Under the pieces are notes generated by a model, which saw only the letters and a list, made by a program, of their open reading frames with translations, was not told where the DNA came from and made no database searches. Positions 186 through 59,209 of a stretch of DNA of 64,000 nt are shown one piece after another. The DNA is from an uncultured Actinomycetota bacterium (lineage in GTDB: Bacteria; Actinomycetota; Actinomycetes; Prado026), in NCBI GenBank assembly GCA_963711005.1, contig CAVQCJ010000003.1, positions 160,119 to 224,118 of the forward strand, in the 5' to 3' direction. Position 1 is the first letter of the stretch. Each line of letters begins with the position of its first letter. A program made the translations under genes and the position numbers.

Positions 186-204
186 AACGGCACTTCGGGG
201 GTGG
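186..204 (+). repeat. hairpin-repeat copy (family consensus GAACGGCAC-TTCG-GTGCG)
   Basis: AACGGCACTTCGGGGGTGG, 105 nt upstream of the SnoaL-like ATG. Confidence 0.55.
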
Positions 205-308
205 ACTGGCTTGCGCAGCCGTCTACGCGCGAGCATGCTCACGTCGCCGCACGCGGGCAACCCGGAGCCGTCGACGCTTGCCGGGTACCCAGCAAGGGAG
301 CCGCACCA

Positions 309-701
309 ATGAGTCTTTCGGCGCAAGAGTTGGCGGGGATGTACTCGAAGGCATGGGCCACTCACGATGTAGACGCGATCGTCGCCCTTCATACACCCGA
401 CTCGGTCTTTCACGTCCATGGTCTGACGGACCCGGCGGCTGGACGCGAAGCCATAGGAAAGGCTGTTGCCGCGATGTTTGGGCTGGCACCAGATCTTCGG
501 TTCGAGAGCAACAGGGGTTACCTCGGAACGGACCACATCGTGTCGGAGTACGTGATGTCGGGCACCTCCAGTGGATCGCCATTCGCCTGCGATGGGGTCG
601 ACGTGATCGCCATCGACGACGGCCTGGTCCGGCGAAAGGACACCTACCTCGACTTGGCGGCCTACCAACGCCAGGGACTTCCTGTCCTCAAGCCGGAGTG
701 A
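309..701 (+). CDS. SnoaL-like / NTF2-fold protein
   Basis: ORF 201..701 trimmed to ATG 309 (MSLSAQELAGMYSKAWATHDVDAIVALHTPDSVFH...DGLVRRKDTYLD). The ~130-aa length and these strings are typical of SnoaL-like polyketide-cyclase-fold proteins. Confidence 0.75.
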   Translation: MSLSAQELAGMYSKAWATHDVDAIVALHTPDSVFHVHGLTDPAAGREAIGKAVAAMFGLAPDLRFESNRGYLGTDHIVSEYVMSGTSSGSPFACDGVDVIAIDDGLVRRKDTYLDLAAYQRQGLPVLKPE

Positions 702-752
702 CGACTGCGGCAACCAAGAGCCGCACGAAATGCCAGATCTGGGACAGCCCGC

Positions 753-770
753 TAACGGCACTCGCTTCGC
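753..770 (+). repeat. hairpin-repeat copy (degenerate)
   Basis: TAACGGCACTCGCTTCGC, 52 nt after the SnoaL-like stop. Same orientation as the copy at 186. Confidence 0.4.
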
Positions 771-838
771 CAAGGGAGCTTGAGGCAGGTCACTCACTCA
801 CGTTGCCTCGCCGAAGATCCGCGATGAACCGGTCCTGA

Positions 839-1173
839 TCATTGATCAGCGAACCCGTTGATCACGCGGAGACGATTCTCGAACTGGCTCTGGTCGAGGT
901 TGTTCGCTAGCCCTTCGCGGTAGGCCAACTCCAGCAGGCGGACTCCAATGTCCAGGTCATGAATCGCCTGGTTGAACTCAGCACCCACAGCCTTGGATTA
1001 GGACCAACAAGGTAGACCGGACCGACAGCTACACCCGCTGCTACCAGCCGCGACTTGCCAATACCAGCGTCGCCGACCACGAGCATCGCGGCCGCATCCG
1101 TCCCGCCCATGAGCAGGGACGCAATCAACCCCAACTCATCGCGCCGACCCGCCAGCGCTGCGGTGGATGCCAC
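839..1173 (-). pseudogene. remnant: N-terminal Walker-A fragment of an AAA/STAND ATPase joined out of frame to an unrelated tail
   Basis: ORF 907..1173 reads GRRDELGLIASLL..AMLVVGDAGIGKSRL and then decays. A second frame runs on to TGA 839-841 (..FNQAIHDLDIGVRLLELAYREGLANNLDQSQFENRLRVINGFADQ*) through a visibly AT-richer patch. Confidence 0.4.
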
Positions 1174-1395
1174 GGCACAAGGTCACCAGTCAAACCCCCG
1201 CCGTCAACGAGGGGGCTGTCTCGCTGGTGTGCCCAGGCCACCGCGCCGCCTCGACAACCGGAGGCAAAGGCGCACCGTCTCGCAAACTCGCCCGGCGTTG
1301 CGCACGAACGGCATGGGGGGAAAGCGCTGTTGCGAGGGGCCGCGTAGCGGACCCGGACCCGGTGGCGCAGTCGGGGCGCGCGTACCCTCGAATGT

Positions 1396-1986
1396 GTGGC
1401 GAACGAGGGCGGGCGCAACGGCGCCGGCCGGGCGTGGGCCGCTGCTGAAACGGAGCCGCTGGAGCTAGTCGCTGCCGAACCGGCTGCCCGGCCCTGGCTG
1501 CGGCTTGTCGCCGCCTTCGTCGTGGGTGTGGCCTCTGGGGCACTGGGGATGCAGTGGCTCGATGACCGTCCCCGGGCGCAGCCCACATCAGTCGATGTAC
1601 GGGTGTCCCTGGCGGCGCAGGCGGGGACTATGAGTGCCGGTGTCGGCGATCCAGTGGTGTCGGTCCCGTTGGTGGTCGTCAACGCCGGTCACCAGCCGGT
1701 CACACTGACGGCGATACGGATCAGCGGTCCTGGGGCGTCCCTGGTCGGCGACCCGCAAGGTCGACCGACTCAACCTCTCCCCGCTGCTCTCATCCCGGGT
1801 CGACCCGTGTACGTGCGGATCGGCATCCGTTCGGACTGCTTGGTGACCGTCAGACCCGTCCCGCACGTGACACTCGTGGTCGACGTCGACCACCACGTCC
1901 ACGACGTGAACGTGACCGTCGCGGACCTCGACTCGATCTGGGGCCAGACGCTCCTGCCCGGAGTGTGCGCGCCGACGGCTGGCTGA
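1396..1986 (+). CDS. hypothetical single-pass membrane protein
   Basis: ORF 1396..1986. TM helix WLRLVAAFVVGVASGALGMQW followed by a beta-rich domain. Start codon uncertain. No family recognised. Confidence 0.4.
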   Translation: MANEGGRNGAGRAWAAAETEPLELVAAEPAARPWLRLVAAFVVGVASGALGMQWLDDRPRAQPTSVDVRVSLAAQAGTMSAGVGDPVVSVPLVVVNAGHQPVTLTAIRISGPGASLVGDPQGRPTQPLPAALIPGRPVYVRIGIRSDCLVTVRPVPHVTLVVDVDHHVHDVNVTVADLDSIWGQTLLPGVCAPTAG

Positions 1987-2248
1987 TCGCCGAAGCAGCG
2001 CTGGAGTCCGCCATTCCTCCCCGCAGCGGACGACCAAGATCCACACCGAATCCGAGACTCGGTCGGCTCCGTCCCGCACACAGCGGCACGGCGGTGCAGC
2101 CTCAGGCCGGGGTGTTGGCCGATCCGTACTCAAGTCCCCACCAACGACCACGGTCGACTCCATGGGCGTGACTGGCGCTGCCACGTCGCAGAGTGGAGCG
2201 CGAACCCCCGGCATTGGTCCCCCGATCAAGCTGCCCCCAGCCGCGCGC

Positions 2249-3466
2249 CTATTCGCCGACGTCGAGCCGGGAGAAGAAGGCGGCGATGTCCCGGGCGAGC
2301 AGATCGGGTACCTCGGCCGCGGCGAAGTGGCCCCCGCGAGGCATCGGTGTCCAGCGGACGACCTCGCACAGGCGCTGCGCCCACTCACGTGGCGGGACCC
2401 CGTCGTCGACGAACTGGTGGAAGACCGCGATCGCGGTGGGGACCGTGACGAAGTCGTCGGGTCCCAGTTGACCCATCGTCCGGTTGTCCGCGTAGTCCCG
2501 CATCGACGTGGTGATCGTCTGCGTGACCCAGTACAACATGACCACGGTGAGCAGGAAGTCGCGGGTGAAGACGTTATCCGGGTCGCCACCCGAGTCCGCC
2601 CAGGACCGCCACTTCTCCAGCACCCACGCCGCCAGCCCGGCGGGTGAGTCGTTCAGCCCGTAGCCGACGGTCTGCGGCCTCGTGGACTGGATCGCGCCGT
2701 AGCCGCGGTCGGTGGCGTTCCACCAGGCGTACTGAGCCAGGTAGGCGTGCTCGGCGTCCGACAATGGCCGCGACCCGGGGCCGGTGTACGGCATCAGATC
2801 CAGGTTGCTCAGGTGCAGACCCAACAGGGGCGTCGGGTTGTCCAGGGCCATGAACGTGGACACGCCGGATCCCCAGTCGGTGCCGTGCGCGCCATATCGC
2901 TCGTAACCCAGGCCCTGCATGAGCTGGTGCCACAGCCCGGCGGTGTACCGAGTGGTGACGCCGGTGCGGGTGGGACGGGTGGAGAAGCCGTACCCGGGCA
3001 ACGACGGGATGACGACGTCGAAACCGGGCCCGTCGATCCCGTGGGCGCCGGGGTCCGTCAACAACGGGACGAGCGGCAGGTACTCGACGAAGCAGCTCGG
3101 CCAGCCGTGAGTCAGGATCAGCGGGATGCCGCGACCTGAGCGGGCGCGCTGATGGACGAAGTGGATCCGAGAGTCGTCCAGCTCCGTGCAGAACTGGTCG
3201 AACGCGTTCAACCAGGCTTCCTGGGCCCGCCAGTCGAAACCGTCGGCCCAGTACGCCACCAGGTTCTGGAGGTAGGCAAGGTCGGTCCCCTGCTCCCACC
3301 GCGGGCCCGGGGCGGGCGGCGGCCAGCGCGTGCCCCTGACGCGGCTACGCAGGTCGGTCAGGACTTCCTCGGCCACCCCTATGGTGAACGGGGTCACCGT
3401 GAGCCCGCCAGGGGCTCGCAGCGTCACGGTCGCCCTCGCGTCCGAGTCACCCGAGAATGCTCCCAT
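2249..3466 (-). CDS. epoxide hydrolase (N-terminal EHN domain + alpha/beta hydrolase)
   Basis: ORF 2249..3505 trimmed to ATG 3466. PFTIGVAEEVLTDLRSRVRGTRWP, IHFVHQRA, PLILTHGWPSCFVEY and VVIPSLPGYGFS are hallmark strings of microsomal-type epoxide hydrolases. Confidence 0.85.
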   Translation of the reverse strand: MGAFSGDSDARATVTLRAPGGLTVTPFTIGVAEEVLTDLRSRVRGTRWPPPAPGPRWEQGTDLAYLQNLVAYWADGFDWRAQEAWLNAFDQFCTELDDSRIHFVHQRARSGRGIPLILTHGWPSCFVEYLPLVPLLTDPGAHGIDGPGFDVVIPSLPGYGFSTRPTRTGVTTRYTAGLWHQLMQGLGYERYGAHGTDWGSGVSTFMALDNPTPLLGLHLSNLDLMPYTGPGSRPLSDAEHAYLAQYAWWNATDRGYGAIQSTRPQTVGYGLNDSPAGLAAWVLEKWRSWADSGGDPDNVFTRDFLLTVVMLYWVTQTITTSMRDYADNRTMGQLGPDDFVTVPTAIAVFHQFVDDGVPPREWAQRLCEVVRWTPMPRGGHFAAAEVPDLLARDIAAFFSRLDVGE

Positions 3467-3605
3467 AGCTCGCCCACACGAGCCTGGGGACTCGGGGAGC
3501 TGCACCGTGCCGGGCCTGACGCGAGCCGGGAACGGTGGCGATCAGCTTCTTGGCGGCGGCCGCGCTCAGATCCTTGCGTGCGCAAGAGATCTTGTACTCG
3601 GCTGG

Positions 3606-4759
3606 TCACCCACGACGTGTGAGCGTCACGACTGAGGCCTGCTGATCGGTCGAGTACATAGCTCCGTCGGCCCCGACTGCAATCCGGTACAGATGCCCGG
3701 GGAGCGACCCGGCGGCGAAGCTGACCGGGCTGACAGTCCCATCGGCGGCCACGGCGTGTACTCCGTCCGTGTCCAACACCAAGAGGACCGAGTCGAAAGG
3801 ATCGAATGCGAGACTCATCCGGCTGAAGAGAACGTTGGGGGGTCCCGCCGCCAGTTCACTGACCTTCCCATCCGGAGTGATCGTGCGGATGCGATAGTCG
3901 TCCGACCCGATGTAGATCGTGCCTGAAGGACCGACGGCGATCGCGCCGGGCCATCCGAGACAGTCACCGGCGCCCGCAGTGGTCGTCGGCGGATATGCGC
4001 ACGCTGGAAGCGTGTCGACCTTGCCCTCAGGGTGACCTTGCGCACCACGCCGGCGCCCGCGACGTACAGGTCTCCGGTGGGGGAGATGGCCATACCGAGG
4101 ATGCCGTCGAACCTGGCTTTGCTCCCGATTCCGTCCACCGTTCCTGGGGTGGCGCCCCCGGCCAGCGTCGACATCTGGCCGTCCGGACCGATCTTGCGTA
4201 TCGCATGGCCGGCGGCCACGTAGACGTTCCCGGAGCCGTCGACGGCGACGGCCCCGAACCCTGCATCCCACCGGGTCGCGGGTTGGCCGGCGATGGTGGT
4301 GACGTGACCGGCCGGGGTGATCGCACGGATTACGGACCGATGGAGGGTGGAACTGAAGTCAGACACGTAGACAGTGCCGGTCGGACCTACCGCGAGCCCT
4401 CCGATTGAGTCGAAGCTGCCTGCGAGTAGGTGGACCGATAGCACGGCCGCAAAGGACTCTGACGGGGAGGGTTTTGAGCTGGTCGGCGGCGGTGCTGGAG
4501 TGGATGTCGGGGGCGGCTCGATCAGCTGGATCGGGGTTGCGTGATCCGTCGCACGCCCGGCCAGCGCGGCCACGCTGATCAGCGCGGCGGCAGCCCCGAC
4601 CGCGACCACACCGACCCAGATCCGGCGGCGCCGGGCCCGGTCGACCCGGTCCAGCCCGGACTCCAGCCGTTGGGCGGCGCGAATGCCATCTACGCAGGCG
4701 GCGGCCTCCTCGACCTCGGCGCGCAGCGCGGAGGTAAGGCTGGACTCGAAGTCGTTCAC
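3606..4759 (-). pseudogene. anti-sigma-factor-like membrane protein with NHL-repeat beta-propeller; frame broken by a 1-nt frameshift near 4030 (or a sequencing error)
   Basis: GTG 4759 overlaps the sigma-factor stop (GTGA). ORF 3815..4843 gives an N-terminal helix, a TM helix (IWVGVVAVGAAAALISVAALAG) and NHL repeats up to ..DLYVAGAGVVRKVT. The repeats continue in the ORF 3606..4271 frame from PEGKVDTLPA..IYIGSDDYRIRTITPDGKV. The two frames join if the GGG run at 4030-4032 were GGGG. Confidence 0.7.
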
Positions 4760-5229
4760 GCCCACGCCTCCATCTGTTCCTTCAAGGCGGCGGTGGCCCG
4801 GAAGGCGTGCCGCCTGACCGAGCCCGTGCTGACCCCGAGCCAATCGGCGATCTGCTGCTCGGACAGGTCCAGGAAGTACCGCAGCACCACAACCTCGCGC
4901 TGCCTACCAGGCAGGTCACGCACCGCGGCGACCAGCTCACGATGTTCGCCCTGGTCCACCCCGCTGGTCTCAGCCGAAGGGACCTGGCCGGCCTCGGGCA
5001 GCACGTACCCCCGCTCGGTGACCCGACGCCGCAACTTCGAACGCGACCCGTTCACCACGCGGCGGTTGAGGTAGGTCACGGCCGCCTGCTGGTCACGCAA
5101 CCGGCCCCAATGGCGGTACAGCGACTCGAAGGCATCCTGAACGACGTCCTCGGCGGTCCCCCGGTCCCCGACCAGCAGCACAGCCAGCCCCACCAGGCGC
5201 CGGTGATGGTGGTGGAACAGCCCAGTCAC
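4756..5229 (-). CDS. ECF-type RNA polymerase sigma factor (sigma-70 regions 2 and 4)
   Basis: ORF 4756..5478. Region 2 is LLVGDRGTAEDVVQDAFESLYRHW. The region 4 HTH is REVVVLRYFLDLSEQQIADWLGVSTGSVRRH. Start set at in-frame GTG 5229 because the upstream part is unlike sigma N-termini. Confidence 0.85.
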   Translation of the reverse strand: MTGLFHHHHRRLVGLAVLLVGDRGTAEDVVQDAFESLYRHWGRLRDQQAAVTYLNRRVVNGSRSKLRRRVTERGYVLPEAGQVPSAETSGVDQGEHRELVAAVRDLPGRQREVVVLRYFLDLSEQQIADWLGVSTGSVRRHAFRATAALKEQMEAWA

Positions 5230-5362: not shown

Positions 5363-6445
5363 TCACCCGCGCCGCTGGACCATCGGGCGGGCGGGCAGCC
5401 CCAGGAAGCGCAGCACGTCGCTCGCCTCCGCGTCGAGCGATGGTCGGGCCGAGGGCGGCACCTCACCCAGCACGTCAACGGTCACCGTGCCGCCGGGCAG
5501 CCCCCAGGTCGCGACGGCCCGTCCGTCGACCAGCACGACCGGGCGGAACACGCCGTTGGTGGTGACCACATGACGGTGCGCTCCGAGCACGCCGTCTCGG
5601 TCTGCCCAGCCCAGCAGCAGCGGGTCGAACGCGCCCAGCATCCGCACCACCGGTGCGCGCGGGGCATGGTCGCGGTCAGCCAGGTCGACGAGCCCTTCCG
5701 GTGTGGTCGACGTCTGCGCGCCGACCGCGTCCAGGCCGCGGCGTGCGTCGCCGACCGGGATGCCCGCCCACTTGGCGAGGTCGGCGGCGGTCGCCGGTCC
5801 GTGTCCCTCCAGATATCGCAGGGCCAGCCGGGCCAACGCGTCGTCGCGGTCCAGCGGCGCAGGGGACCGGCCCAGCCAGTGCGCCGGGTCGACGAACGCC
5901 TGCTCAGCGCCGACCACGGGTCCGCGGACGACCAACCCTTCCAGGGTGGCCGCGAGCAGGACGTGGACCAGCGCCTGCCCTTTGGTCGGCACTCCGTCCT
6001 CGTCCAGCAGATCCCTGAGCTGCCCGCGCGTCCGTCTCTGCCCCCCGGACACGGCCTCGCGCACCACGTCGATGCCGCGCGCCGCCTGGGCCGCGCTTAC
6101 CCCCTCCTGCCGAAGACGCCGGCGGTTCCCGGTGGCCAGCTGTGGGGTGGTGAGCGCGTGCAGCCACCAGTAGTCCGACCCCGTTACCAACTGCAGCGTG
6201 CCGCGGTTGAGCCAGCTGACCACCAGGGACCGGCGCTCGGTGAGCGCGGCGTCCACGTCCGCCGCGCGCACACCCGCCGCACGGGAACGGATCGCGAGTC
6301 GGAATCCGCGTGAGTCCTGGGCCTGAACCGCGAGCAAGTGCCGCGTCACATCCTCGGGACCCACCAGCGCCGGACGACTCAACCACTGCGCGCCCAGGCG
6401 CGCCCGCCACAGCTCGGACACTGTGGCCGGCGCACTCTTCGTCAC
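5363..6445 (-). CDS. winged-helix DNA-binding protein of the YcaQ/AlkZ-like (HTH_42) family
   Basis: ORF 5363..6517. LLAVQAQDSRGFRLAIRSR, VVSWLNRGTLQLV, LRYLEGHGPATAADLAKWAG, FDPLLLGW and VFRPVVLVDGRAVATW match my memory of this family. Start is GTG 6445 or ATG 6517. Confidence 0.75.
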   Translation of the reverse strand: MTKSAPATVSELWRARLGAQWLSRPALVGPEDVTRHLLAVQAQDSRGFRLAIRSRAAGVRAADVDAALTERRSLVVSWLNRGTLQLVTGSDYWWLHALTTPQLATGNRRRLRQEGVSAAQAARGIDVVREAVSGGQRRTRGQLRDLLDEDGVPTKGQALVHVLLAATLEGLVVRGPVVGAEQAFVDPAHWLGRSPAPLDRDDALARLALRYLEGHGPATAADLAKWAGIPVGDARRGLDAVGAQTSTTPEGLVDLADRDHAPRAPVVRMLGAFDPLLLGWADRDGVLGAHRHVVTTNGVFRPVVLVDGRAVATWGLPGGTVTVDVLGEVPPSARPSLDAEASDVLRFLGLPARPMVQRRG

Positions 6446-6510
6446 CCGCCCAGGGTACGAGCGACCAGGGCCAGCTGCACCGACGGACCGAGACCGGCCA
6501 CCGGGAGAAC
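5876..6510. repeat. 635-bp direct repeat, copy 1 (first 190 codons plus 65 nt upstream of the ycaQ-like gene)
   Basis: Colinear with 31142..31776 at a constant offset of 25266. I count 6 substitutions (6003, 6068, 6098, 6390, 6465, 6498) and no indels. Confidence 0.9.
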
Positions 6511-6549
6511 TGGCCATAGCGTCAGGTCGGCTGCTCTAGCGTCTGCAGG

Positions 6550-6795
6550 ATGGTGGACACGCGCCGCAACGCTCCCCGATGGGTCACCTGGTTGCTGATT
6601 GCCCTCGGTGCGCTTGTGCTGCTGGCGGCGGCCATGTATGCGGCGTTGCCGAGCCACGACCTCCCGACCTTCGTCCCCGGGTACAAGGTTGGTGCCGAAC
6701 GACATCACCGCGGTCACGCTCTCCTACTCCTTGGGTTCGCGGTCGTGACCTTCATAGGCGCGTGGCAGAGCGCCGGCCACCAAAGACGCGCCTGA
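6550..6795 (+). CDS. small two-TM membrane protein (paralog of 37811..38059)
   Basis: ORF 6550..6795. Helices PRWVTWLLIALGALVLLAAAMYA and ALLLLGFAVVTFIGAWQS flank a conserved PGYK.G....HHGHA. Roughly half the residues are shared with the ORF at 37811. Confidence 0.6.
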   Translation: MVDTRRNAPRWVTWLLIALGALVLLAAAMYAALPSHDLPTFVPGYKVGAERHHRGHALLLLGFAVVTFIGAWQSAGHQRRA

Positions 6796-6813
6796 ACGAC
6801 ACGTCGGTGCGGC
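6794..6813 (+). repeat. hairpin-repeat copy
   Basis: GAACGACACGTCGGTGCGGC. Overlaps the TGA stop (6793-6795) of the small membrane gene. Confidence 0.55.
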
Positions 6814-8432: not shown

Positions 8433-8474
8433 CGGTTCTTGTGCTGTGGACAACCCCGGATCCTGAGGTCCTGG
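8433..8474 (+). repeat. 42-nt direct repeat, copy 1
   Basis: CGGTTCTTGTGCTGTGGACAACCCCGGATCCTGAGGTCCTGG. Identical to 22165..22205 except for one extra C. Confidence 0.9.
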
Positions 8475-9201: not shown

Positions 9202-9548
9202 GTGCTGTCTCCTCCCTGGGACGCCCGTCGACCCCGCCTCGAATCTCGCACCTGCCGGACCAGGCTGCCAAGACGCGCTCCTCGGCGGCCACGAGCAGCC
9301 AGGGCTGACTAGCATTTCCCCGACATGGCGCGGCTCTCATGCGTGCGCAGGTGCCGGTGTGGGGCGACTTGACCGTCCACAGGGGAACGCCCGAACGGCC
9401 CGTCGGGGCGTTGTCATGTCCCAGAGCAGTTGGCCCGACCCGAGGTCCAGCCCATGACCCGTTTGGCCATGTCCGGCGTCGGCGTCCTTCCTCGCCATCG
9501 CGGCCGAATAGACCGGTCTACGCAGACGTGACGAGGGACGGGTCTCGA

Positions 9549-18335: not shown

Positions 18336-18646
18336 ACTAGGGCCAGTCGGTGTCGCCGGACCGTCCCTACCGTCAGGAGCCAGAGCGACACACCGCCCAT
18401 TCTTCTACGCTTCGATCACCCGAAACCGGCTGATGATCAGCATGGGCCGCACTCCGGTCCACGCGGCTTCCCCTTCGCCGTATTTGTCGATGACGCCCCG
18501 CCCCAGAACGGCACGTCTGTTCGGGTGCGCTGGGCTGTGACTTCGCGTGGCGGGTTTCTCCAAACGGGTGGATGGCCTGCCTGCGCAGTGAGGCCGAGCG
18601 ACTTGGCGGTTGGCGGACCGCGGCCTGGTGCTGGCTCGTGAGCCAC

Positions 18647-19276: not shown

Positions 19277-19900
19277 GTGGCGTCACGGAAGCAGCCCTCG
19301 ACGGCGCGGGCCTACACGATGGGGGCACGACAGGAAGCCGTCGACGAAACGCGCCTGCGAATCACTGAGGCGACCATGTACCTGCACGAGAGGGTTGGGC
19401 CGCGCGCCACTACTGTGTCCGCAATCGCCGTGGAAGCGTCAGTCACACGGCTCACGGTCTACCGACATTTCCCGGACGAAGAGTCGCTGGTCAGTGCCTG
19501 CTCCGCTCACTGGCGGCAGCTGCACCCACGACCCGACCCCGAGTCGTGGTCGAAGATCGAAGACCCCGTGGAGCGACTTCACACGGCACTGGCAGAAACC
19601 TACGCGTGGGCGCGGCCAGCGGCACCGATGATGACCATGATTCACCGGGACCTCGAAACGATGCCTGACTTCGTGGGCCAGTTCTTGGCTGCTGACGAGA
19701 AGGCACGCGTGACCGCTCTCAGCCGGGGGTTTCGCGCCCGGGGCCGCGCCGCCACCCGGTTGGCAGCTGCCCTGGCGCACGCCCTACGAGTGGGTACATG
19801 GGAATCGCTCTGCCTAGACGCGGGTCTCACTGACCAAGAAGCAATCGACATCATGGTCGGCGCCGTTCTCGCCGCCATCCCCGCCAAGATCCGCACATAG
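19277..19900 (+). CDS. TetR-family transcriptional regulator
   Basis: 3' part of ORF 18572..19900. HTH TTVSAIAVEASVTRLTVYRHFPDEESL. Start is GTG 19277 or ATG 19319. Divergent from the cupin gene across an AT-richer 81-nt spacer. Confidence 0.8.
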   Translation: MASRKQPSTARAYTMGARQEAVDETRLRITEATMYLHERVGPRATTVSAIAVEASVTRLTVYRHFPDEESLVSACSAHWRQLHPRPDPESWSKIEDPVERLHTALAETYAWARPAAPMMTMIHRDLETMPDFVGQFLAADEKARVTALSRGFRARGRAATRLAAALAHALRVGTWESLCLDAGLTDQEAIDIMVGAVLAAIPAKIRT

Positions 19901-20199
19901 TGCCGGATCGGCGCCCGCTCACGGCAGGGAGGTTGGGCCCATTGCTTCTGGCAGCCGCGATTGCGACGTTCGCGCTTCCGCTGCTCGCGGCCTGGCTGGC
20001 TGCGTCCCGCGCCCCCTAACGGCATCACATCTGTGCGCAATGGTGTCTGCGGCCAGGTCCAACGGGCCGCCCCCGACGAGCCCGGGCTTGCTTGCGCGCG
20101 TGAGGAGAGGAGATGTTCCCCATCCGAGCATCGCCCTGCAGGGTGGACACGTACTCTGCCGCAATCGCGATAACTGACGATCAGAGCACGGGAGGGATC

Positions 20200-20649: not shown

Positions 20650-20712
20650 CCTCACGCACAGAACTGCCGGGTCTGGGGCGCACAGAACGGCGGTGCGGCT
20701 CTGAGTCGGGTC

Positions 20713-20730
20713 GCCGGCACTTCGGTGCGC
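20713..20730 (+). repeat. hairpin-repeat copy (two loop-less or degenerate relatives lie at 20656 and 20682)
   Basis: GCCGGCACTTCGGTGCGC, between the convergent DivIVA-like and ClC genes. GCACAGAACGGCGGTGCGGC at 20681-20700 matches the flanks of the copy at 42175. Confidence 0.6.
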
Positions 20731-20754
20731 TCGACCGCGGTGGATCTCAGGACG

Positions 20755-22107: not shown

Positions 22108-22164
22108 CGGCGCACCCTCCTGCCACAGATACCGCAGCTGTCGCCGCGATGCCGCACATACTGC

Positions 22165-22205
22165 CGGTTCTTGTGCTGTGGACAACCCGGATCCTGAGGT
22201 CCTGG
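22165..22205 (+). repeat. 42-nt direct repeat, copy 2
   Basis: CGGTTCTTGTGCTGTGGACAACCCGGATCCTGAGGTCCTGG. Ends 23 nt upstream of the integrase-remnant start. Confidence 0.9.
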
Positions 22206-22227: not shown

Positions 22228-22869
22228 GTGTCCGATCAGTTCACCCTCGTCCGTTCTGAGCCGTTCGACCGGTTCTCCGGGGGCGTACCTGGCCGCGGCC
22301 GGGTTCTTGGCCCGCTACTTCGGACGGACCCGGGATGCCCACGCCGCGGACCTGCGCACCTACCTGGCCTGGTGCACCGGCGAGCCGAACGTGGCCACCG
22401 CACCCTGCACATCATCGGCAAGGGCGGCAAGCCCGCCCTCATCCCGCTGCCGCCACCGGTGGCCCGAGCCTTGGACCTGGCCGCCGACCAGCGCAGCACC
22501 GGACCCCTGCTACTGACCCGGACCGGGGCCCGGATGGACCGCTACGCGGCCTCCCGGATCGTGCACCGCCTGGCCAAGAAGGCCGGGATCGAGCACCGGG
22601 TCGGCTGCCACTCCTTGCGCCACTCCTCCATCACCGCCGCCCTGGACGCCGGCGTCACCCTGCGCGACGTCCAGATCGCCGCCCGGCATGCCGACCCCCG
22701 CACCACCACCCGGTATGACCGGGCCCGCGGCAACCTGGACCGGCACGCCAACTCCATCGTCGCCGCCTTCATCGCCGGAGCCGCCTGGCAGCACGAGAAC
22801 CGGCATTCGGTGCGCTCCTGTCCAGGGGCCTCGCGCGGCGCGTGTGCCCCATGTCGCAACGGGACTTAG
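22228..22869 (+). pseudogene. tyrosine recombinase (phage-integrase family) remnant with internal deletion/frameshift
   Basis: The catalytic half is intact in ORF 22228..22869 (LHIIGKGGKPALIPLP..HSLRHSSITAALDAGVTLRDVQIAARHADPRTTTRYD). The N-terminal core-binding string AYLAAAGFLARYFGRTRDAHAADLRTYLAWC is in another frame (ORF 22028..22516). It abuts the catalytic half with roughly 100 codons missing. Confidence 0.7.
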
Positions 22870-24225: not shown

Positions 24226-24501
24226 CCCGGAGCGACACGGGCAGGACCTGCAGGCTCAGCACGAAAACCCAGCCAGGGAAGAGTAGAACCAGCCACTGTT
24301 CTCTTCCGACGCGGCGCACGCAGCAACGTCAGAGCAGTGCCGTCGTCTCGGTGTTCATCCTGCTTTGGCTGGTCCGGACGTTCGTCCTCTGATCCGCCCC
24401 CGAAGTGCCGCTATGTGCGGGACGGAGCCACCCGAGTCCCGGCCTTCGGTGCACGCTTTCGCATCCTGGGTCGGCGCTTGTACCGGGTCGATCTCGTGGG
24501 C

Positions 24502-25638: not shown

Positions 25639-25984
25639 GTGACCCGTCTCCTAGGCCTGGGGCTCCCGCCCAAGGGTCCTCCGACGTGCTGTCATGAGCG
25701 CGGCCCAGCCGGGCGGGGGTGGTCGCGATTCCGCTGATACCTCCGGTACAGAGCGAGGCCAGCGATGAGCGAGATCAGCGCCAGGCCAACGACGAGGATG
25801 GGCGTCCAGAAGGTGATCCAGCCGTCGACCGGTGCGGCTGGTTGCAGTCAGGCGACCCCGGTGGGCAACCAGCGATGACGGCAGCGTGGAAGGCCGCGAA
25901 GGAAGGCTAGGCCGCAGCCACCCGCACTGACGTGCCGAGCTGTTCGCCCAGCCCAGCGCTTGATCCGGCATTGGGTGCGGCAAG

Positions 25985-27043: not shown

Positions 27044-27083
27044 GCGAGGTCGGGCATCCGTCACTGCGTATGCCCGACCTCGC
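27044..27083 (+). terminator. stem-loop 13 nt after the fasciclin stop
   Basis: GCGAGGTCGGGCAT (27044-57) pairs perfectly with ATGCCCGACCTCGC (27070-83), with a 12-nt loop. No U-tract. Confidence 0.5.
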
Positions 27084-27841: not shown

Positions 27842-28074
27842 CCAACGAACGCTAGTCGAAACCATCCGTCCAAAGGCCTACTCAAGCTTGCAGGCACCGG
27901 ATCGACCCGGGCGCGGCAGCGACCGCCACGGCAACAGTCCCTGTGGACCATCGTCATCGCCGGCATAGCCACCCAGCCAGCCACCCGCGCCTCCATCGAA
28001 CGACGCACGCAGCTTGCCGCCCGTGAACGGCACCAATGTTCGACGCCGCCGGCGTGCTTCGCTGTTCGGTTTGC

Positions 28075-37190: not shown

Positions 37191-37552
37191 GTGCGCGACC
37201 CTGGTTACCATCCGGGATTGGATGGCGTCCGTGGAGTGGCAATTCTTCTGGTTCTCGGCCAGCACGCCCCGACCAAGCCACTCACTCCCTGGTGATCGTC
37301 GCAGGAACCGGACTGACGCTCGTGACACAGATCGGCGTCGTGACTTCGCCACGATCTGCAGTTGGATCGCTGTTGGCAAGCGGCCCATTGAGGTGGCTGG
37401 GCGAGCGGTCATACTCGATCTATCTCTGGTCCTCGCGCGCATCGCGATACTAGCTTCGCTCGGACATACGATAGTCGGTGATATCGCCTGGATTGCCATG
37501 TTCGTCGTGCTGGCCGAGGCGAGCTTCCGGTTCGTCGAGCGTCCGATGCGGG
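37191..37552 (+). pseudogene. acyltransferase-3 (OafA-like) gene remnant with a large internal deletion and frameshifts
   Basis: GTG 37191 opens VRDPGYHPGLDGVRGVAILLVLGQHA (the family N-terminus), which stops at about 37293. The ORF 37163..37453 frame gives GPLRWLGERSYSIYLWS. A third frame gives IAWIAMFVVLAEASFRFVERPMR (the family C-terminus). The roughly 250 codons normally in between are missing. Confidence 0.55.
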
Positions 37553-37810
37553 GCTCATTTCGCGCGTGGGTCTGGTATATCCGACCGCCACATTTCCGAT
37601 CCGGTTCGTCTGAGAGTGCCGCGCTTGCTCTGACCCGTGTGTTGGAGCCCTGGCTGCCCGTATGGGTCTCGGCGCCGAGGTGGCTCACGATCCTGCGCGT
37701 TGCCCGAACCCGGACATAGGTGGTGACGTTCGATAGGGCGCAAGACTTGGTGCAGCGCCGACCACCGTCGTTCCAAAACCGCTAGTGATCTTCGGCGTAC
37801 GCTCGCGGCC

Positions 37811-38059
37811 ATGGACCAGCCGAGGCGCGCCGCACCCAAGTGGGTCACGTGGACGCTAGTGGTCATCGGCGTAGTCCTGGTAGCGGTGGCGGTCATGTAC
37901 GCGTTCGTACCCTCGCACTCGCTGCCCAAGTTGATGCCCGGCTACAAGGCGGGCAGTTCCCGGCTGCACCACGGCCACGCGCTCTTGTTGGCCGGAATGG
38001 CATCTGTCGTCTTCGTTGGGGCGTGGCAGTCGACTTGGTGGCGAGTCCCGAATCCCTGA
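37811..38059 (+). CDS. small two-TM membrane protein (paralog of 6550..6795)
   Basis: ORF 37811..38059: PKWVTWTLVVIGVVLVAVAVMYAFVPSHSLPKLMPGYKAGSSRLHHGHALLLAGMASVVFVGAWQS aligns colinearly with the 6550 product. Confidence 0.6.
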   Translation: MDQPRRAAPKWVTWTLVVIGVVLVAVAVMYAFVPSHSLPKLMPGYKAGSSRLHHGHALLLAGMASVVFVGAWQSTWWRVPNP

Positions 38060-38106
38060 TGTCCTCGCGGATCGACAAGACCTTCACGGCGTCGCGTGCC
38101 GCTTCG

Positions 38107-38130
38107 CCCGTGGAAGTGCCGTTCTGTAGC
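38107..38130 (-). repeat. hairpin-repeat copy
   Basis: Plus strand CCCGTGGAAGTGCCGTTCTGTAGC, 48 nt after the stop at 38059. Confidence 0.5.
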
Positions 38131-38163
38131 GCCTACCCCAGCTTGGGTGGAAGCCCAGGGCCG

Positions 38164-40482: not shown

Positions 40483-40746
40483 GACCACCAGGCTGCCCTC
40501 GCGGCCGCCTCGTGGCGTCCACCCCAGGATGGACCTCGGGTTGATCTTCGCCTCCACCCGGCCTATCACCCGGACGCTGCCTGAGTCCCGCAAGACCGGG
40601 CCGGCCGACGAAACGAGAACGGCGAGCCACGGGCGGCGGCGCACGCCTGCCGAGAAGCTAACCGGCGCAGCACCCGGCTCGGCGGACCCCCCTGCCGATC
40701 CCCCTCGACGGATCGAGAACTCATGCGGTGCGCGCCGAAGTGATGC

Positions 40747-40781
40747 TATGGAGCTGGGAGCGCCTGCTCGGCCGGCATCGC
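40747..40781. repeat. inverted-repeat arm A (pairs with 59068..59102)
   Basis: TATGGAGCTGGGAGCGCCTGCTCGGCCGGC is the exact reverse complement of 59073..59102. Four of the next five nt also match. Directly preceded by a hairpin-repeat copy (40727-40748). Confidence 0.9.
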
Positions 40782-40793
40782 CAGCGTGAGGGC

Positions 40794-41015
40794 ATGACAA
40801 AGAAGCGCTGGAGCGACTTTACGACTGGACAGCAGCGGGCGATCATCGTCGGCGGTGCCGTCGAGGTTGTGGTTACTGCCCTCGCGTTGAGAGATCTCGC
40901 CCGGCGGCCCAGCTCGCAGGTGCGCGGACCAAAGGCGGTCTGGGTGTTGTCCTTCGTAGTGCAGCCGTTTGGCCCTTTGGCGTACTTCGCTAGAGGCCGC
41001 CAACCGGCCGACTGA
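40794..41015 (+). CDS. PLD-nuclease N-terminal (PLDc_N) domain small membrane protein
   Basis: ATG 40794 inside ORF 40728..41015: MTKKRWSDFTTGQQRAIIVGGAVEVVVTALALRDLARRP..VRGPKAVWVLSFVVQPFGPLAYF matches the family pattern (two TM helices, L.RRP, K..W......P.GP.AYF). Confidence 0.7.
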   Translation: MTKKRWSDFTTGQQRAIIVGGAVEVVVTALALRDLARRPSSQVRGPKAVWVLSFVVQPFGPLAYFARGRQPAD

Positions 41016-41213
41016 CACCCTGTATCGGCGCACGGAAGTGCGGTGGTGCCAACCGGTCGATGCAACAACCTGCTGTCGTGAGGGGGTCGTCCGACGGAGG
41101 AGGGAAGGGGACTGCCCCGGGGGCGGCGCGGTTTCCATCGGGCGTCGAGGGTGTGGGGCTTGGGGGCCGAACGGCTTAGTAACCGCGGGGGCTGGCGACG
41201 GGCAGGCTGCTCG

Positions 41214-41927: not shown

Positions 41928-42174
41928 GAGGGCCCTCCTCCGTTGGGGGACCCGAACCTACCGCCGGCCAGTCCGAAAATCTCTCCCGGGAAAGAGGGGG
42001 GACCTGGAACCGTCGTTCTGCGGGTACCAGCAAGATCCAGGCTCGCTGGACAGGTTGGCGTCGGCCACGCCGCGCCCTTGATCAAACTCGGCCCCTCGAT
42101 AGGCGCCTGGCTGGCCGGTCTGTGGTCACCCCGCTCTTCTCCGTCTTGACCCCGTCCCCCCGCTTGGGCAGCCC

Positions 42175-42200
42175 CAGAACTGGCATTCGGTGCGGCTCGG
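42175..42200 (+). repeat. hairpin-repeat copy (GGCATTCGGTGCG subtype, as at 22798)
   Basis: CAGAACTGGCATTCGGTGCGGCTCGG, in the divergent spacer between the LamG-like and nucleotidyltransferase-like genes. Confidence 0.55.
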
Positions 42201-56569: not shown

Positions 56570-56573
56570 GGGT

Positions 56574-57356
56574 TCAGGAACCGAACGAGCTGGCGACCAG
56601 AGCGATGCCATGCCCCCAGGACGTCAGCGGGCCGGCCGGCAGGTAGGCCGTACCGGCGGCCGTGTGGTCGATCATCGGGATGGCGACGTAGCGTTCCCGA
56701 CCCTGCGGATCGATGAAGTAGACCACCGAGGTGTGGACGATGTCCGCGTCAGGGCTGGGAGCCGAGACAGCGACGTTGTACGCGTGCCAGACCGCCTCGA
56801 GACTTGACACGTCTCCGGTCAGGAAGTGCCAGGTCGGAACGGTGTTCAACCGCTGCGCGTTCGAATAGGCAGCCATGTCGGCGACGCTGTGGTGATAGGC
56901 GTTGACGTTGACGGCCAGGAACACCACGTCCGAGGACGGGCCGAGCTCGCGGTACGCGTCGATGAACTCTTGCGACACGATGGGACACACATCGGTGCAG
57001 TGCGGATCCATGAACTCCAGCACGACCGGATGGCCTCGGAGACCGGCCAGGGCGAGGGTGCGACCGTCCTGGTCGACGAGGGTGAAGCCGGGGGCCTGCG
57101 CTGCCGGCACGGGCGACAGCGCCATCAGGTCAGCCAGGGAGGACGGGACGTCCGCGGGTATCCCGGTGGCCCGAGGCTGGCCGGTCGCCGCGGCTTGCGA
57201 CAACGCGTCCTTGACCTGCTCCCGGTGCCGGACCGCGAGTGCGGCGAACACAACCGCGCCACACGCCGCGAGGACGACGAGAGTCACCAGGGTCTTCGAG
57301 CGAGACGCCCGTGCCGGCGTCTCGTCACGCTCCAACGTCTTGACCTCGTCTGTCAC
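56574..57356 (-). CDS. SCO1/SenC-family copper chaperone
   Basis: ORF 56574..57458 trimmed to GTG 57356. TM anchor, then FMDPHCTDVCP (CxxxC) and a downstream His (AYHHS). Confidence 0.8.
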   Translation of the reverse strand: MTDEVKTLERDETPARASRSKTLVTLVVLAACGAVVFAALAVRHREQVKDALSQAAATGQPRATGIPADVPSSLADLMALSPVPAAQAPGFTLVDQDGRTLALAGLRGHPVVLEFMDPHCTDVCPIVSQEFIDAYRELGPSSDVVFLAVNVNAYHHSVADMAAYSNAQRLNTVPTWHFLTGDVSSLEAVWHAYNVAVSAPSPDADIVHTSVVYFIDPQGRERYVAIPMIDHTAAGTAYLPAGPLTSWGHGIALVASSFGS

Positions 57357-57769
57357 GCAATCATCGTGACTGCTGCGCTGCTCGTGGGCAACCGTTCGCA
57401 GACCTCGGTCAACCGACCTCGGCCATGATCTCGTCGGAGACGTCGTAGTAGCCCACACGTTCTGAGCGTCGTCCTGTCCTCGAGCGCCTTGGCCAGGCGG
57501 AGCACCTTCGGCGCGATGCTGGCCGGACCACCTGGCGTCAGGCTCGAGCCGTCGAGCCGCCCTTGCGACGCTCGTACGACTCTCCGTGGGACAGAGCTTG
57601 CTCGCCTAGACGCCCTTCAGGCCATCGCTTGGGCTCGCGCGGTGACCGGTGACCTAGCGGCGATCGACGTCTTCCTTCGGATCGTGGACAAGCTGCCGGA
57701 CTCCTCAGGCTCAACACCTCGCCGAACACGAGCACAACCGTGCTGAGGACGGCTCGAACCAGCTTGTGG

Positions 57770-57870
57770 ATCGCGCCGCCCGCTCACGTGTCGCACGAGA
57801 CGATCTACCTGTCGCTGTTCGTGCAGGGCCGTGGCACGTTGCGCACGGAGCTGCACGCCCATCTTCCCGT
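57770..57870 (+). pseudogene. IS30-family transposase remnant (middle part)
   Basis: ORF 57740..57997: HVSHETIYLSLFVQGRGTLRTEL matches the conserved VSHETIY..LYVQ.RG.LR.EL block between the HTH and DDE regions of IS30 transposases. Nothing else of the gene remains. Confidence 0.5.
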
Positions 57871-57972
57871 GCGGAACTTCGCCCAGTGTCACCTACGCGA
57901 CAGCGTGGCCGCCGTCCGCTCGCCAGCCTTCCGGTGTGCACCGACTCCCGGTGCCGCACCAAGGAGGCCGAG

Positions 57973-58296
57973 ATGTCCGCACTCGCCCGCACCCTGACCC
58001 GCATCACCGTTGGGCTGGCTGCCCTCTTCTTCACCGGGCTCGGAACGGCTGCCTTCGCGGCGGTGCCTGTGCCCGACCCGAGCACCGCTTACAACGGCGG
58101 CTTCGACCGCGGCAACCCCACCGGGCTCGTGGTCGTCGCGCCGCCCGCGCAGCACCCGACTCAGGCGGCCGTGTCCGGGGTGAGCACACTCACCCTGCTG
58201 CTCCTGATCACCGCTGCGATCGTTGTCGCCGTGGTCGCCACGCAGGCCATCCATCGCCTGCGCACGAACAGTCCGACCCGCGCTGTCGCCGCCTGA
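57973..58296 (+). CDS. hypothetical secreted/anchored 107-aa protein
   Basis: ATG 57973 follows AAGGAGG (57961-67). Signal peptide ITVGLAALFFTGLGTAAFA and C-terminal TM helix LTLLLLITAAIVVAVVA with a basic tail. Confidence 0.5.
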   Translation: MSALARTLTRITVGLAALFFTGLGTAAFAAVPVPDPSTAYNGGFDRGNPTGLVVVAPPAQHPTQAAVSGVSTLTLLLLITAAIVVAVVATQAIHRLRTNSPTRAVAA

Positions 58297-59067
58297 GCAG
58301 GACGGGCAGGGCCGTGGTCACCGGGGCGGGCCAGTCGCCCGACCCCGGGGTCCGCGGAAGAGCGCGTCGCCGCTACCAACCCGGACCAGCCACCACCAGG
58401 TGTCTGCACCACTCGGGGAGAGGACAACATAAGCGCGGATTGGTGCTCTCGGGCCGGCCACGGCCGGCAGGCTCAGCGGACCCCCGGGGGGCTTCTCCCA
58501 TGGGCAGCCCGGGGGGTTGCACTGTTCGCTGGACGCCCGAGGGCCCGCAACTATGGGCCTACCCATCCTCGCCCGATGGGAACCGCCCCGCCCCCGGGGC
58601 AGTCCTCTTCCCCCCGTCGGCATCGGTCGCGCAAACGTCGGTCTTTACAGCACGAACCCCCCGGCCTACGAGCCTCCGGGGGGTTTCGTGGTCGTGCAAG
58701 GTCCTCGCGAGGACCTTGACCCGGCCCCTAAACCCGCCTTCGGGCAGCACGAACCCCCGGCGACGGGGGAGACACCGAGGGTCCGCTGAGAGCAACGGTA
58801 CGCCGCTACACAGCGCGCTTGACATTCTCGGCCTCGATCCGCCCGAACCGCTTTCTCGCCGACGCCGGTCCGGAAGTCCACGTACACCCGCTGGCCGCGC
58901 CAGCCGTGCGCAAACCCGGGGAAGCTGCCGACGACGGGACACCGCGGCCGGGTGATCGCGACGGTCACCTCGACCGGCTCAGGGAACGCCCGTTGGGGGG
59001 TCATTGGGTCAGTGTCTCGGTCAATGGCCGGGCTGTGACTTAGGTATCGCTTGGACAAGGTATGGCC

Positions 59068-59102
59068 GCGACGCCGGCCGAGCAGGCGCTCCCAGCTCCA
59101 TA
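59068..59102. repeat. inverted-repeat arm B (pairs with 40747..40781)
   Basis: GCCGGCCGAGCAGGCGCTCCCAGCTCCATA (59073-59102) is the exact reverse complement of 40747-40776. Directly followed by a hairpin-repeat unit. Confidence 0.9.
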
Positions 59103-59209
59103 ACGGCAGGGATGTTGGATCGGGGTGTCTCCCGCCCGGTCTGACTCGATGTAACGGCTGGCACCTCAGGTTGCCCTGTAAGTGATCCGTCGGCCGGGCG
59201 GGAGACCCC
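59101..59209 (+). other. composite structured non-coding element (two hairpin-repeat-like units enclosed by a long-range stem)
   Basis: First unit TAACGGCAGGGATGTTGGATCGGGGTGTCTCCC (59101-33; compare 30885-30913). Second unit GTAACGGCTGGCACCTCAGGTTGCC (59151-75). GGGGTGTCTCCCGCCCGG (59122-39) pairs with CCGGGCGGGAGACCCC (59194-209) apart from a 2-nt bulge. Confidence 0.5.

Follow-up and report, generated by a model that had tools for sequence, protein, structure and literature searches.

What kind of element is a ~20-bp sequence that recurs between unrelated small genes without regard to the direction in which those genes are read? The question is raised by a 64,000-nt stretch of DNA (hereafter the window) from an uncultured Actinomycetota bacterium of the GTDB lineage Prado026 (GenBank assembly GCA_963711005.1, contig CAVQCJ010000003.1, positions 160,119 to 224,118). 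A first-pass annotation described the sequence as a dispersed hairpin repeat at the 3ʹ ends of accessory genes, and proposed that it is either a propagating element resembling repetitive extragenic palindromes (REPs) or miniature inverted-repeat transposable elements (MITEs), or a specifically recognized signal at transcript 3ʹ ends. The repeat proves to be genuine. A REP- or MITE-like element remains a live rival, but newer evidence points more to site-specific recombination sites. Our tentative reading is that the copies are the core sites of an Xer-like tyrosine recombinase system that accretes and exchanges small accessory-gene segments.

A dispersed repeat family in accessory DNA

The repeat has the consensus (A/C)GAACGGCAC-TTCG-GTGCGG and forms a unit of ~20 bp whose 5ʹ half is the best conserved part. 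A variant subfamily, AGAACCGGCA(T/G)T..GTGCGG, overlaps the same repeat families (D2 and D3). The repeat is more frequent in the window than composition predicts. For example, AACGGCAC has 10 exact matches versus 2.43 expected, and none of 100 shuffled sequences reached 10. With at most one mismatch allowed, AACGGCACTT occurs 12 times (1.82 expected) and GCACTTCGGTGC six times (0.8 expected), while the loop-centred sequence GGCACTTCGG is not enriched on its own in the window (10 versus 7.9 expected). A weight matrix iterated at low threshold drifted into codon-periodic coding sequence, and a seed matrix was used in its place.

As first proposed, it is the primary sequence that is conserved, and the copies form a dispersed family, distinct from ordinary terminators, that prefers gene boundaries in accessory DNA. 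It could be matched to no recognized family: Rfam returned no match, and the motif string is absent from the papers searched. About 20 of the 25 copies originally listed are acceptable members. Good canonical copies stood at 186, 6794, 20713, 30225, 30885, 24394, 34756, 36323, 36617 (the perfect one) and 38107, and moderate ones at 753, 28025, 34254, 40727, 41027 and 59101. Those at 22798, 42175, 19895 and 20656 belong to the variant subfamily, and 20682 is a loop-deleted copy. Four entries (1987, 2201, 28051 and 59151) are weak or unconvincing, and at least eight copies had been missed: 9392, 18505, 31826, 25921 (-), 25962 (+), 22152 (-), 33412 (+) and 2080 (+).

The gene map of the window, which was built from codon-position G+C content and a codon-usage score and annotated with Pfam, distinguishes two types of DNA, namely core-like operons and blocks of unrelated small accessory genes. 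The core-like DNA comprises an ABC transporter and two-component system (11.7-17 kb), a gene of 1171 codons and a block at 48-57 kb. The accessory blocks (0-9 kb and 18-43 kb) include genes for two SnoaL-like proteins, a cupin, a CLC channel, a fasciclin, RibD_C, a 2-hydroxyacid dehydrogenase, an AAA_18 kinase, copies of an AlkZ-like glycosylase, a DUF4389 protein, a LuxR-type two-component operon, a PLDc_N mini-protein and a LamG protein. The local density of motif copies is ~1 per 2.5-4 kb, a level seen in accessory blocks only. No intergenic match falls within 9.5-18 kb (ABC/two-component genes) or 43.5-57 kb (the oxidase region), which bears out the earlier statement that these operons are free of copies.

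Nine of the 10 exact AACGGCAC cores lie in the non-coding 23% of the window (binomial p=1.3e-5). Of 18 copies, 10 are no more than 65 nt away from the 3ʹ end of a curated gene, versus 3.4 for random intergenic placement (p=0.0006), a test in which the large unannotated stretch at 36-38 kb somewhat inflates the random distances. The initial claim that nearly all copies lie 0-65 nt downstream of a stop codon is therefore sound as a statement of enrichment but overstated. Distances from stops range from 0 to >150 nt, three copies (40729, 33412 and 42176) are in divergent, promoter-side positions, and six reside in convergent gaps with no downstream gene. The stop codon is part of the unit in two of the cases put forward (TGA at 6793-6795 and TAA at 30225-30227), but those at 19898 and 36617 could not be assigned to convincing genes. 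TAA is indeed uncommon, ending three of the 52 curated genes that finish in a stop codon (a 53rd entry finishes in ACC through an error in its coordinates).

Co-oriented runs and one-sided flanks

When the 18 canonical copies are read along the window, their orientations (++++++--++++------) fall into four runs (permutation p=0.003), and these runs cut across gene direction. Head-to-head doublets are in the minority, with three (20653/20679, 25921/25962 and one in a related contig, L054) versus more than 20 singletons. Transcription units in the window are often bracketed by copies (Table 1). The two SnoaL-like proteins encoded by units of this kind are only 26% identical to each other.

Pairs of copies resemble each other on the 5ʹ side only, and the similarity ends at or inside the core. 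For example, 2044-2105 and 24389-24451 are identical in register to …AGCGGCAC (GGCAC) and differ thereafter. Similarly, 40747-40781 and 59068-59102 have 35 nt in common on the 5ʹ side (97%), 22787-22814 and 42167-42194 have 28 nt in common at 89% identity, and window positions 20670-20695 match a metagenome contig (L133). The flanks common to copy pairs measure 12-54 nt.

Two regions of the window, 40747-41151 and 58563-59102, present the same non-coding blocks on either side of two unrelated small genes, a PLDc_N-like gene at 40797-41015 (+) and an open reading frame (ORF) at ~58700-59007 (-). One block is the 35-nt sequence that adjoins a motif copy, and the other is a G+C-rich block of 46-53 nt with GGGGACTGCCCCGGGGGCGG. 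Judged by these alignments, the two regions look like different genes set in one frame of flanks.

A probable DNA-level site rather than an RNA signal

Originally, the motif was seen as a hairpin with a UUCG tetraloop. A sequence-conserved element of this type could terminate or stabilize transcripts at their 3ʹ ends, possibly through a binding protein. Such an element would agree with the 3ʹ-end enrichment and with the presence of several copies in convergent gaps, and it has a precedent in TRIT, whose 147 sequence-conserved palindromic copies reside at mycobacterial gene termini and overlap stop codons (PMC3152330). However, the only regular pairing in the motif is GCAC/GUGC, a stem of 4 bp that survives complete in only three of the 17 copies that were chosen by an exact 5ʹ half alone. 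The stem is often broken by a recurrent 3ʹ variant, GTTCG. Copy 9392, for its part, does carry a change on both sides of the dyad (GGCCC and GGGCG). In 13 contexts the folding z-scores range from -2.15 to +0.73, and the sole context to beat shuffled sequence is 18495-18540 (z=-2.15).

Orientation and downstream sequence are also unfavourable to the 3ʹ-end element. Among copies located no more than 65 nt from a stop, five have the same orientation as the nearest upstream gene and five the opposite one, and therefore half of the transcripts would carry the reverse complement. No U-tract or T-run follows the motif at any copy. Thus, the stable G+C-rich hairpin, U-tract and gene-matched orientation of intrinsic terminators are all lacking. 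In addition, three copies are in divergent regions, and even TRITs show little overlap with termination sites mapped by Term-seq (bioRxiv 10.1101/2022.06.01.494293). We consider an RNA 3ʹ-end signal very improbable. Orientation without regard to genes and an RNA stem that is not maintained fit a site that functions at the level of DNA.

One DNA-level possibility is an operator or promoter motif, in which a transcription factor or alternative sigma factor reads (A/C)GAACGGCAC…GTKCG throughout a regulon. Several copies are located 50-180 nt upstream of gene starts (184, 30224, 40729, and 2682 in L054), the 5ʹ half is best conserved, and a GAAC…GTTC dyad is present in some copies. This proposal nevertheless leaves six copies in convergent gaps without a downstream gene to control, and two copies that overlap stop codons. 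Moreover, no second conserved promoter element appears at a fixed distance, relatives keep the same gene families without the motif, and subfamily members have flanks of 12-35 nt in common, unlike independent binding sites. Regulation by such a factor is thus an extremely unlikely explanation.

Other candidates were set aside. A coding explanation fails for want of a consistent reading frame through the copies. The spacing or positions of LexA boxes, the PafBC/RecA-NDp motif, ECF -35/-10 elements and sigma-54 promoters do not fit (an informal comparison). A likeness of AAGTGCCGT to the Haemophilus uptake signal AAGTGCGGT was treated as coincidence, and, in contrast to uptake sequences, nearly all copies are intergenic. 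A likeness between shufflon sfx sites and GTGCCAATC in copy 34757 was likewise treated as coincidence.

Homology breaks inside the motif beside an integrase gene

The window contains a degraded tyrosine recombinase gene (ORF 22228-22869; Pfam Phage_integrase, E=3e-14) whose N-terminal domain lies in another frame, with ~130 codons deleted and the stop codon lost. NCBIfam identifies the product as generic Xer-like. Its best matches are XerD, XerC and XerA, all below their cut-offs, and matches to the integron-integrase models reach 42.9-50.9 bits against a cut-off of 265 and 24.6-26.4 bits against a cut-off of 435, on the C-terminal part only. A motif copy, GAGAACCGGCATTCGGTGCGC, begins 6 nt past the natural stop position of this gene.

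Loci with homologous integrases were chosen by protein rather than by motif, and two of them (L250 and L260, from ENA ERZ25039574) were reached through the integrase and its neighbour RtcB. The integrase in these contigs is 77% identical to the window remnant. The gene order is tRNA-Met, a different integrase fragment, a motif array, the homologous integrase and gene fragments. The array has 8-9 copies, every one of them in the + orientation, in a gene-poor stretch of 4.7 kb that carries small ORFs and RtcB. In L260 it resides upstream of the homologous integrase and downstream of the fragment adjoining tRNA-Met, and the adjacent 6 kb of L260 core genes hold no motif copy.

A second group of contigs, L261-L264, comes from JGI sister samples and carries argS, tRNA-Arg and an integrase remnant that is 83% identical to that of the window. 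Upstream, L261 is 99.5-100% identical to L262 and L263 as far as …GCGAGAAATATCCGGC (ending GAGAAATATCCGGC), and from the next base onward the sequences are unrelated. Past the break, L261 continues with TAATAGGCATCGC… (TAATAGG…), whereas L262 and L263 continue with ATTCGGTATCGG…, which corresponds to the loop and 3ʹ half of the variant motif. The L264 contig ends at the break base. The stretch from the integrase stop to …CCGGC is also conserved between L250 and L261, after which L250 proceeds to TACTTGAGAC. Conservation among L250, L261 and the window therefore ends at the same CCGGC, inside the motif. Each alternative segment contains one ORF, of 245 aa with no Pfam match in L261 and of 159 aa with a weak DUF6869 match in L263, and each of these ORFs is followed by a canonical copy (reverse complement GAGCGCGAACGGCAC…) in the opposite orientation.

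Homology breaks at the same nucleotide beside a recombinase gene in one population and again in the comparison of three genomes, and such a break is the signature of a crossover site. The arrangement parallels lambda-type att sites, in that the integrase gene adjoins the core and the homology of alternative states ends inside it. Here the site is located 6-40 nt past the integrase stop.

We favour the recombination-site reading, at a confidence short of even, because it accommodates most of the observations: a sequence conserved as DNA, orientation without regard to genes, flanks that are alike on one side, co-oriented arrays, confinement to variable DNA, integrase remnants and the junction polymorphism. 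We infer that this integrase acts on these sites and that the segments move as units. The recombinase gene would carry a site just past its own 3ʹ end, and strand exchange would occur inside the motif, around GGC/AC-TTCG (…CCGGC/ATTCGG in the variant; the slash marks the break). DNA segments with one to a few accessory genes would be joined at this site, each bringing or leaving a site copy at its boundary. Repeated rounds of this process, followed by decay of the integrase gene, would yield accessory genes separated by ~20-bp sites. These sites would usually be co-oriented over several kilobases, with one side conserved (the 5ʹ extension and left half) and the other variable. The logic would be that of an integron, or of tandem accretion at an att site, with different components.

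Two further observations concern the surroundings of the integrase genes. In L260 (6110-6663 and 14181-14943), tRNA-Met is followed directly by the different, phage-type integrase fragment, and metabolic gene fragments (Glucosamine_iso, 67 aa; TREH_N, 103 aa) occur further on. The region is a decaying island at a tRNA site that hosts the motif array. In the window, a 42-nt repeat (8433-8474 and 22165-22205, 97.6% identity) has one copy flanked by a variant motif copy and the beginning of the integrase remnant. The second copy occupies a convergent gap by itself, with a degenerate motif-like stretch before it, and may be the solo end of an integrase-bearing unit. Within the repeat, TTGTCCACA resembles a DnaA box.

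Evidence that weighs against recombination sites

Several observations count against the recombination-site reading. Every integrase copy that adjoins the motif looks damaged. The window remnant has a frameshift and a deletion, the L261 gene is truncated at the N terminus, and the L250 gene is frameshifted; no intact partner integrase was found among the loci examined. All 120 best homologs of the remnant (window 22402-22785; P0121-P0240) are short ORFs of 105-224 aa. Integrase loci of the same family also occur without the motif (L251, L252-259, L265 and a Pseudonocardia plasmid). The population-level polymorphism is a single case, and in it the distal and integrase-proximal sites point in opposite directions, an arrangement more in keeping with inversion or shuffling than with simple cassette insertion. 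The window remnant is likewise flanked by inverted rather than direct copies. Treating the canonical motif and the variant beside the integrase as equivalent depends on a sequence similarity that includes two indels. Finally, the window and the fetched loci share no segment, such that none is seen in two contexts, and the ends of a 635-bp duplication in the window do not coincide with motif copies.

The short integrase ORFs have features of their own. Many of the homologs are exactly 177 aa long, and L250 and L251 still encode the N-terminal domain, although in a different frame. Recurrent decay, long-read indel errors or a two-frame gene structure could each produce such ORFs, and in long-read metagenome-assembled genomes (MAGs) indel errors may be part of the cause.

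The most substantial alternative is a REP-like repeat (REP/REPIN/BIME, or a hairpin relic of IS200/IS605), a short selfish or domesticated element that is tolerated only between genes. It would be copied in trans by a single-strand HUH (Y1) transposase encoded elsewhere in the genome, and its proximity to an integrase would be an accident of accessory DNA. Many properties of the family agree with this proposal, including its intergenic location (23% of the DNA holds nine of the 10 exact cores, p=1e-5), enrichment near 3ʹ ends in both orientations relative to genes, subfamilies with longer common flanks, the three head-to-head doublets and lineage-specific abundance. The element supplies the stop codon in two cases, as other small insertions do, and replication-coupled single-strand transposition of the IS200/IS605 type could yield co-oriented runs. 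However, Pfam detected no RAYT/IS200-type (Y1) gene among the ~60 window ORFs scanned, a search that did not extend to the fetched loci. The palindrome of 4 bp is mostly broken, unlike typical REP stems, and most copies are co-oriented singletons rather than inverted pairs. Copies are also concentrated in variable DNA, with none in 43.5-57 kb, in 60 kb from relatives or in the core part of L260. A REP-like origin also leaves unexplained why near-identical contigs swap gene segments exactly at the motif beside an integrase. We regard this alternative as less likely than recombination sites.

Distribution beyond the window

The motif is lineage-specific. No intergenic copies are present in 60 kb of three relatives (L120, L248 and L249) whose orthologues are ~75% identical in amino acid sequence, an outcome of the comparison with related genomes that had been recommended at the outset. 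Copies bracket a CPBP protease gene in L054, a related MAG contig, much as they bracket units in the window. An exact 17-mer scan of genome contigs yielded mostly conserved Pseudomonas coding sequence among the matches listed, of which L054 is the only true relative. Matches in Streptomyces, Amycolatopsis, Asanoa and a palsa MAG lie inside ORFs and were attributed to chance. Most matches to a degenerate pattern in soil-metagenome contigs are chance coding ones as well. In 11 of the 13 metagenome contigs that carry two copies these are co-oriented (binomial 0.011). Co-oriented examples include L223, in which three copies bracket genes of ~100 aa, and L214, L175, L199 and L228.

Several kinds of mobile element were considered and rejected as the source of the motif. 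A link to phages was discounted, with only seven matches in 2.9 million viral contigs. There is no plasmid near match to the window, and among plasmid integrases the closest homolog, at 55% identity, lacks the motif. Transposase or insertion sequence ends are not indicated, given that Pfam found no transposase among the window ORFs and that the 99% duplication does not end at copies. A tRNA-derived att site was also dismissed, the motif being unlike the tRNA-Met and tRNA-Arg that adjoin integrases.

Comparison with known systems

Like integrons, the loci described here combine a tyrosine recombinase gene with an adjacent primary site. Short sites that are similar within a lineage separate unrelated accessory genes, one-sided conservation is seen at the crossover, and strain-variable content starts exactly at the site. 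Co-oriented arrays are a further likeness. An array of this type lies beside the integrase gene in L260, and the runs in the window and 11 of the 13 metagenome loci show the same ordering. Unlike integrons, the recombinase is generic Xer-like rather than an IntI-type integrase with its specific extra domain, and the site is located past the 3ʹ end of its gene, whereas attI is upstream of intI and divergent from it. The core is ~20 bp, versus a folded attC of 57-141 bp, and shows no consistent outer inverted pair matching the attC symmetry R''-L''/L'-R' (RYYYAAC…GTTRRRY); its extensions are on the 5ʹ side only. Integron cassettes are mostly single promoterless ORFs co-oriented with attC, whereas the segments here hold 0-3 genes in either orientation, with sites 100-180 nt upstream of starts that leave room for a promoter of their own. 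Integrons have been reported missing from sequenced Actinobacteria (PMC2426708).

A chromosomal integron-like platform in uncultured soil Actinomycetota, composed of an Xer-like recombinase, a primary site at its own 3ʹ end and 20-bp (A/C)GAACGGCAC-TTCG-GTGCGG cores, is a more specific and rather doubtful proposal. Such a platform would capture, shuffle or replace segments of one to a few genes by using short double-stranded cores instead of folded attC sites.

The Xer-dependent dif modules of Acinetobacter plasmids are shuffled between replicons (PMC6449649, PMC13141974). In these modules, as in our loci, short Xer-type sites bound discrete sets of accessory genes, and the recombinase considered here is also Xer-like. 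In contrast, pdif sites are 28 bp long (11-6-11), alternate in orientation around each module, are served by host XerC/XerD and are found on gammaproteobacterial plasmids. The sites described here have a ~20-bp core, are mostly co-oriented and chromosomal, and are situated beside a dedicated, non-housekeeping integrase.

REP/RAYT systems resemble the motif in being short extragenic repeats with a conserved 5ʹ block (GAAC) beside a small dyad, in their enrichment after genes, and in their subfamilies, occasional inverted doublets and lineage-specific amplification. In REP/RAYT systems, hundreds of copies are scattered over the genome, often as inverted doublets, and a RAYT (Y1 HUH transposase) gene is flanked by inverted REPs. 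The motif departs from this pattern in its small unmaintained dyad, its predominantly co-oriented singletons and its restriction to variable DNA, and no RAYT was detected among the scanned window ORFs. TRIT is likewise an actinobacterial motif, conserved in sequence at gene termini, that sometimes overlaps the stop codon and whose machinery is unexplained (PMC3152330). It is a well-conserved, stable palindrome near position -8 of the stop and is confined to Mycobacterium, whereas our motif is asymmetric, folds poorly and comes from a host outside Mycobacterium. The motif is set apart here by the published description of TRIT rather than by a sequence comparison with its consensus. As currently defined, integrons, dif modules and TRIT do not include the motif, and REP elements probably do not.

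Other features of the window

The coordinates of the motif copies and associated features are given in Table 1. The G+C content of the window is 66-75%. It contains no tRNA genes, and Rfam gave no match within it at gathering thresholds. In protein comparisons the gene products match Actinomycetota. The DUF4389 protein is 100% identical to one encoded on a 247-kb MAG contig; it has further homologs at 74-84% identity, and those in Kribbella and Nocardioides are at 67-68%. An ECF-type sigma factor gene (Sigma70_r2/r4) is located at 4756-5229, within an accessory block.

Three additional features were noted. First, a region of ~2.2 kb (35950-38160) has almost no codon-position G+C signal, and its long ORFs lack Pfam matches. 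It holds two motif copies, including the perfect one, and may be decayed or foreign DNA. Second, a 635-bp direct duplication with 99% identity links 5876-6510 to 31142-31776. Through it, the gene for the AlkZ-like DNA glycosylase (5363-6517, -) has had its 5ʹ portion copied as a truncated ORF (31064-31819, -). Third, self-comparison revealed near-perfect palindromes of 33-62 nt at 36225-36257, 27044-27083, 58678-58738 and 59933-59966. These palindromes are probably ordinary stem-loops that are unrelated to the motif.

Table 1. Motif copies, the integrase remnant and bracketed genes in the window. A slash within a sequence marks the observed or proposed junction.
Feature	Coordinates	Strand	Remarks
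Canonical copy CAAACGGCACTTCGGGGGTGG	184-204	+	106 nt upstream of SnoaL-1 (310-701)
SnoaL-1 gene	310-701		bracketed by copies 184 and 752
Copy with exact 5ʹ half CTAACGGCAC, degenerate 3ʹ half	752-772	+	51 nt past SnoaL-1 stop
54-60-nt subfamily unit, end ACAGCGGCAC/GGCGGTGCAGC	2044-2105	+	5ʹ part common with 24389-24451 to GGCAC
Canonical copy TGAACGACACGTCGGTGCGGC	6793-6813	+	TGA is stop of small membrane protein gene 6579-6795
Copy CGAACGGCCCGTCGGGGCGTT	9392-9412	+	both dyad sides changed (GGCCC and GGGCG); newly found
Canonical copy AGAACGGCACGTCTGTTCGGG, GTTCG 3ʹ-half type	18505-18525	+	newly found
Variant copy GATCCGGCACTATGTGCGG	19891-19909	-	
Three-copy cluster	20653-20731	mixed	convergent gap
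Variant copy in cluster	20653-20673	-	
Loop-deleted copy in cluster	20679-20699	+	head-to-head with 20653-20673
Canonical copy in cluster	20711-20731	+	
Variant copy AGAACCGGCAGTATGTGCGG	22152-22171	-	identical to 33412-33431; 57 nt before integrase remnant start
Degraded Xer-like tyrosine recombinase gene	22228-22869	+	frameshift, ~130-codon internal deletion, stop lost
Integrase-proximal site GAGAACCGGC/ATTCGGTGCGC	22793-22815	+	6 nt past natural stop position; putative junction, from L250/L261/L263
Subfamily unit, end ATAGCGGCAC/TTCGGGGGCGG	24389-24451	-	partner of 2044-2105
Head-to-head doublet	25921-25981		AGCTCGGCACGTCAGTGCGGG at 25921-25941 (-), GATCCGGCATTGGGTGCGCG at 25962-25981 (+)
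Copy TGAACGGCACCAATGTTCGAC	28024-28044	+	31 nt past stop of 2-hydroxyacid dehydrogenase gene (-)
Canonical copy CTAACGGCACTTTGGTGTGGC	30224-30244	+	TAA is AAA_18 gene stop; 160 nt upstream of SnoaL-2
SnoaL-2 gene			bracketed by copies 30224 and 30884
Canonical copy GTAACGGCACTTCTGTTCGGG	30884-30904	+	52 nt past SnoaL-2 stop
Canonical copy CTATCGGCACGTCGGTGCGGC	31826-31846	+	24 nt past stop of DUF4389 gene (-); newly found
Variant copy AGAACCGGCAGTATGTGCGG	33412-33431	+	divergent intergenic region
Moderate copy GTAACGGCCACTTTGGTTCGGA	34248-34269	-	one base inserted
Canonical copy TGATTGGCACTTCGGTGCGCG	34757-34777	-	convergent gap
417-aa ORF	34959-36212		bracketed by copies 36321 and 34757
Canonical copy CGAACGGCACTTTGAGTGCAC	36321-36341	-	
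Sole perfect copy CGAACGGCACTTCGGTGCGTT	36618-36638	-	
Canonical copy AGAACGGCACTTCCACGGGCG	38105-38125	-	39 nt past stop of LuxR-type response regulator gene (-)
Three-gene two-component operon			bracketed by copies 40729 and 38105
Degenerate copy ATAGCATCACTTCGGCGCGCA with 35-nt 5ʹ extension	40729-40781	-	97% like 59068-59102; divergent region
Moderate copy ACCACCGCACTTCCGTGCGCC	41027-41047	-	convergent gap
Variant copy AGAACTGGCATTCGGTGCGG	42176-42195	+	89% over 28 nt to 22787-22814
Degenerate copy ATAACGGCAGGGATGTTGGAT with common 35-nt 5ʹ extension	59068-59120	+	

Implications

Actinobacterial accessory genomes are large and highly variable, and we know of no integron-type gene-capture system that has been described in Actinobacteria. 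If the motif is the site of a dedicated recombinase, it would account for the way in which these soil lineages gather and trade small accessory genes, and it would serve as a simple sequence tag for such regions in metagenomes. It would also represent a cassette system, built from different parts, in a phylum without known integrons. Because the system would be compact, with one protein and a 20-bp site, it could be tested in vitro. If the motif is instead REP-like, it would join the very few families of this kind reported from the phylum and be a counterpart of the unexplained mycobacterial TRIT.

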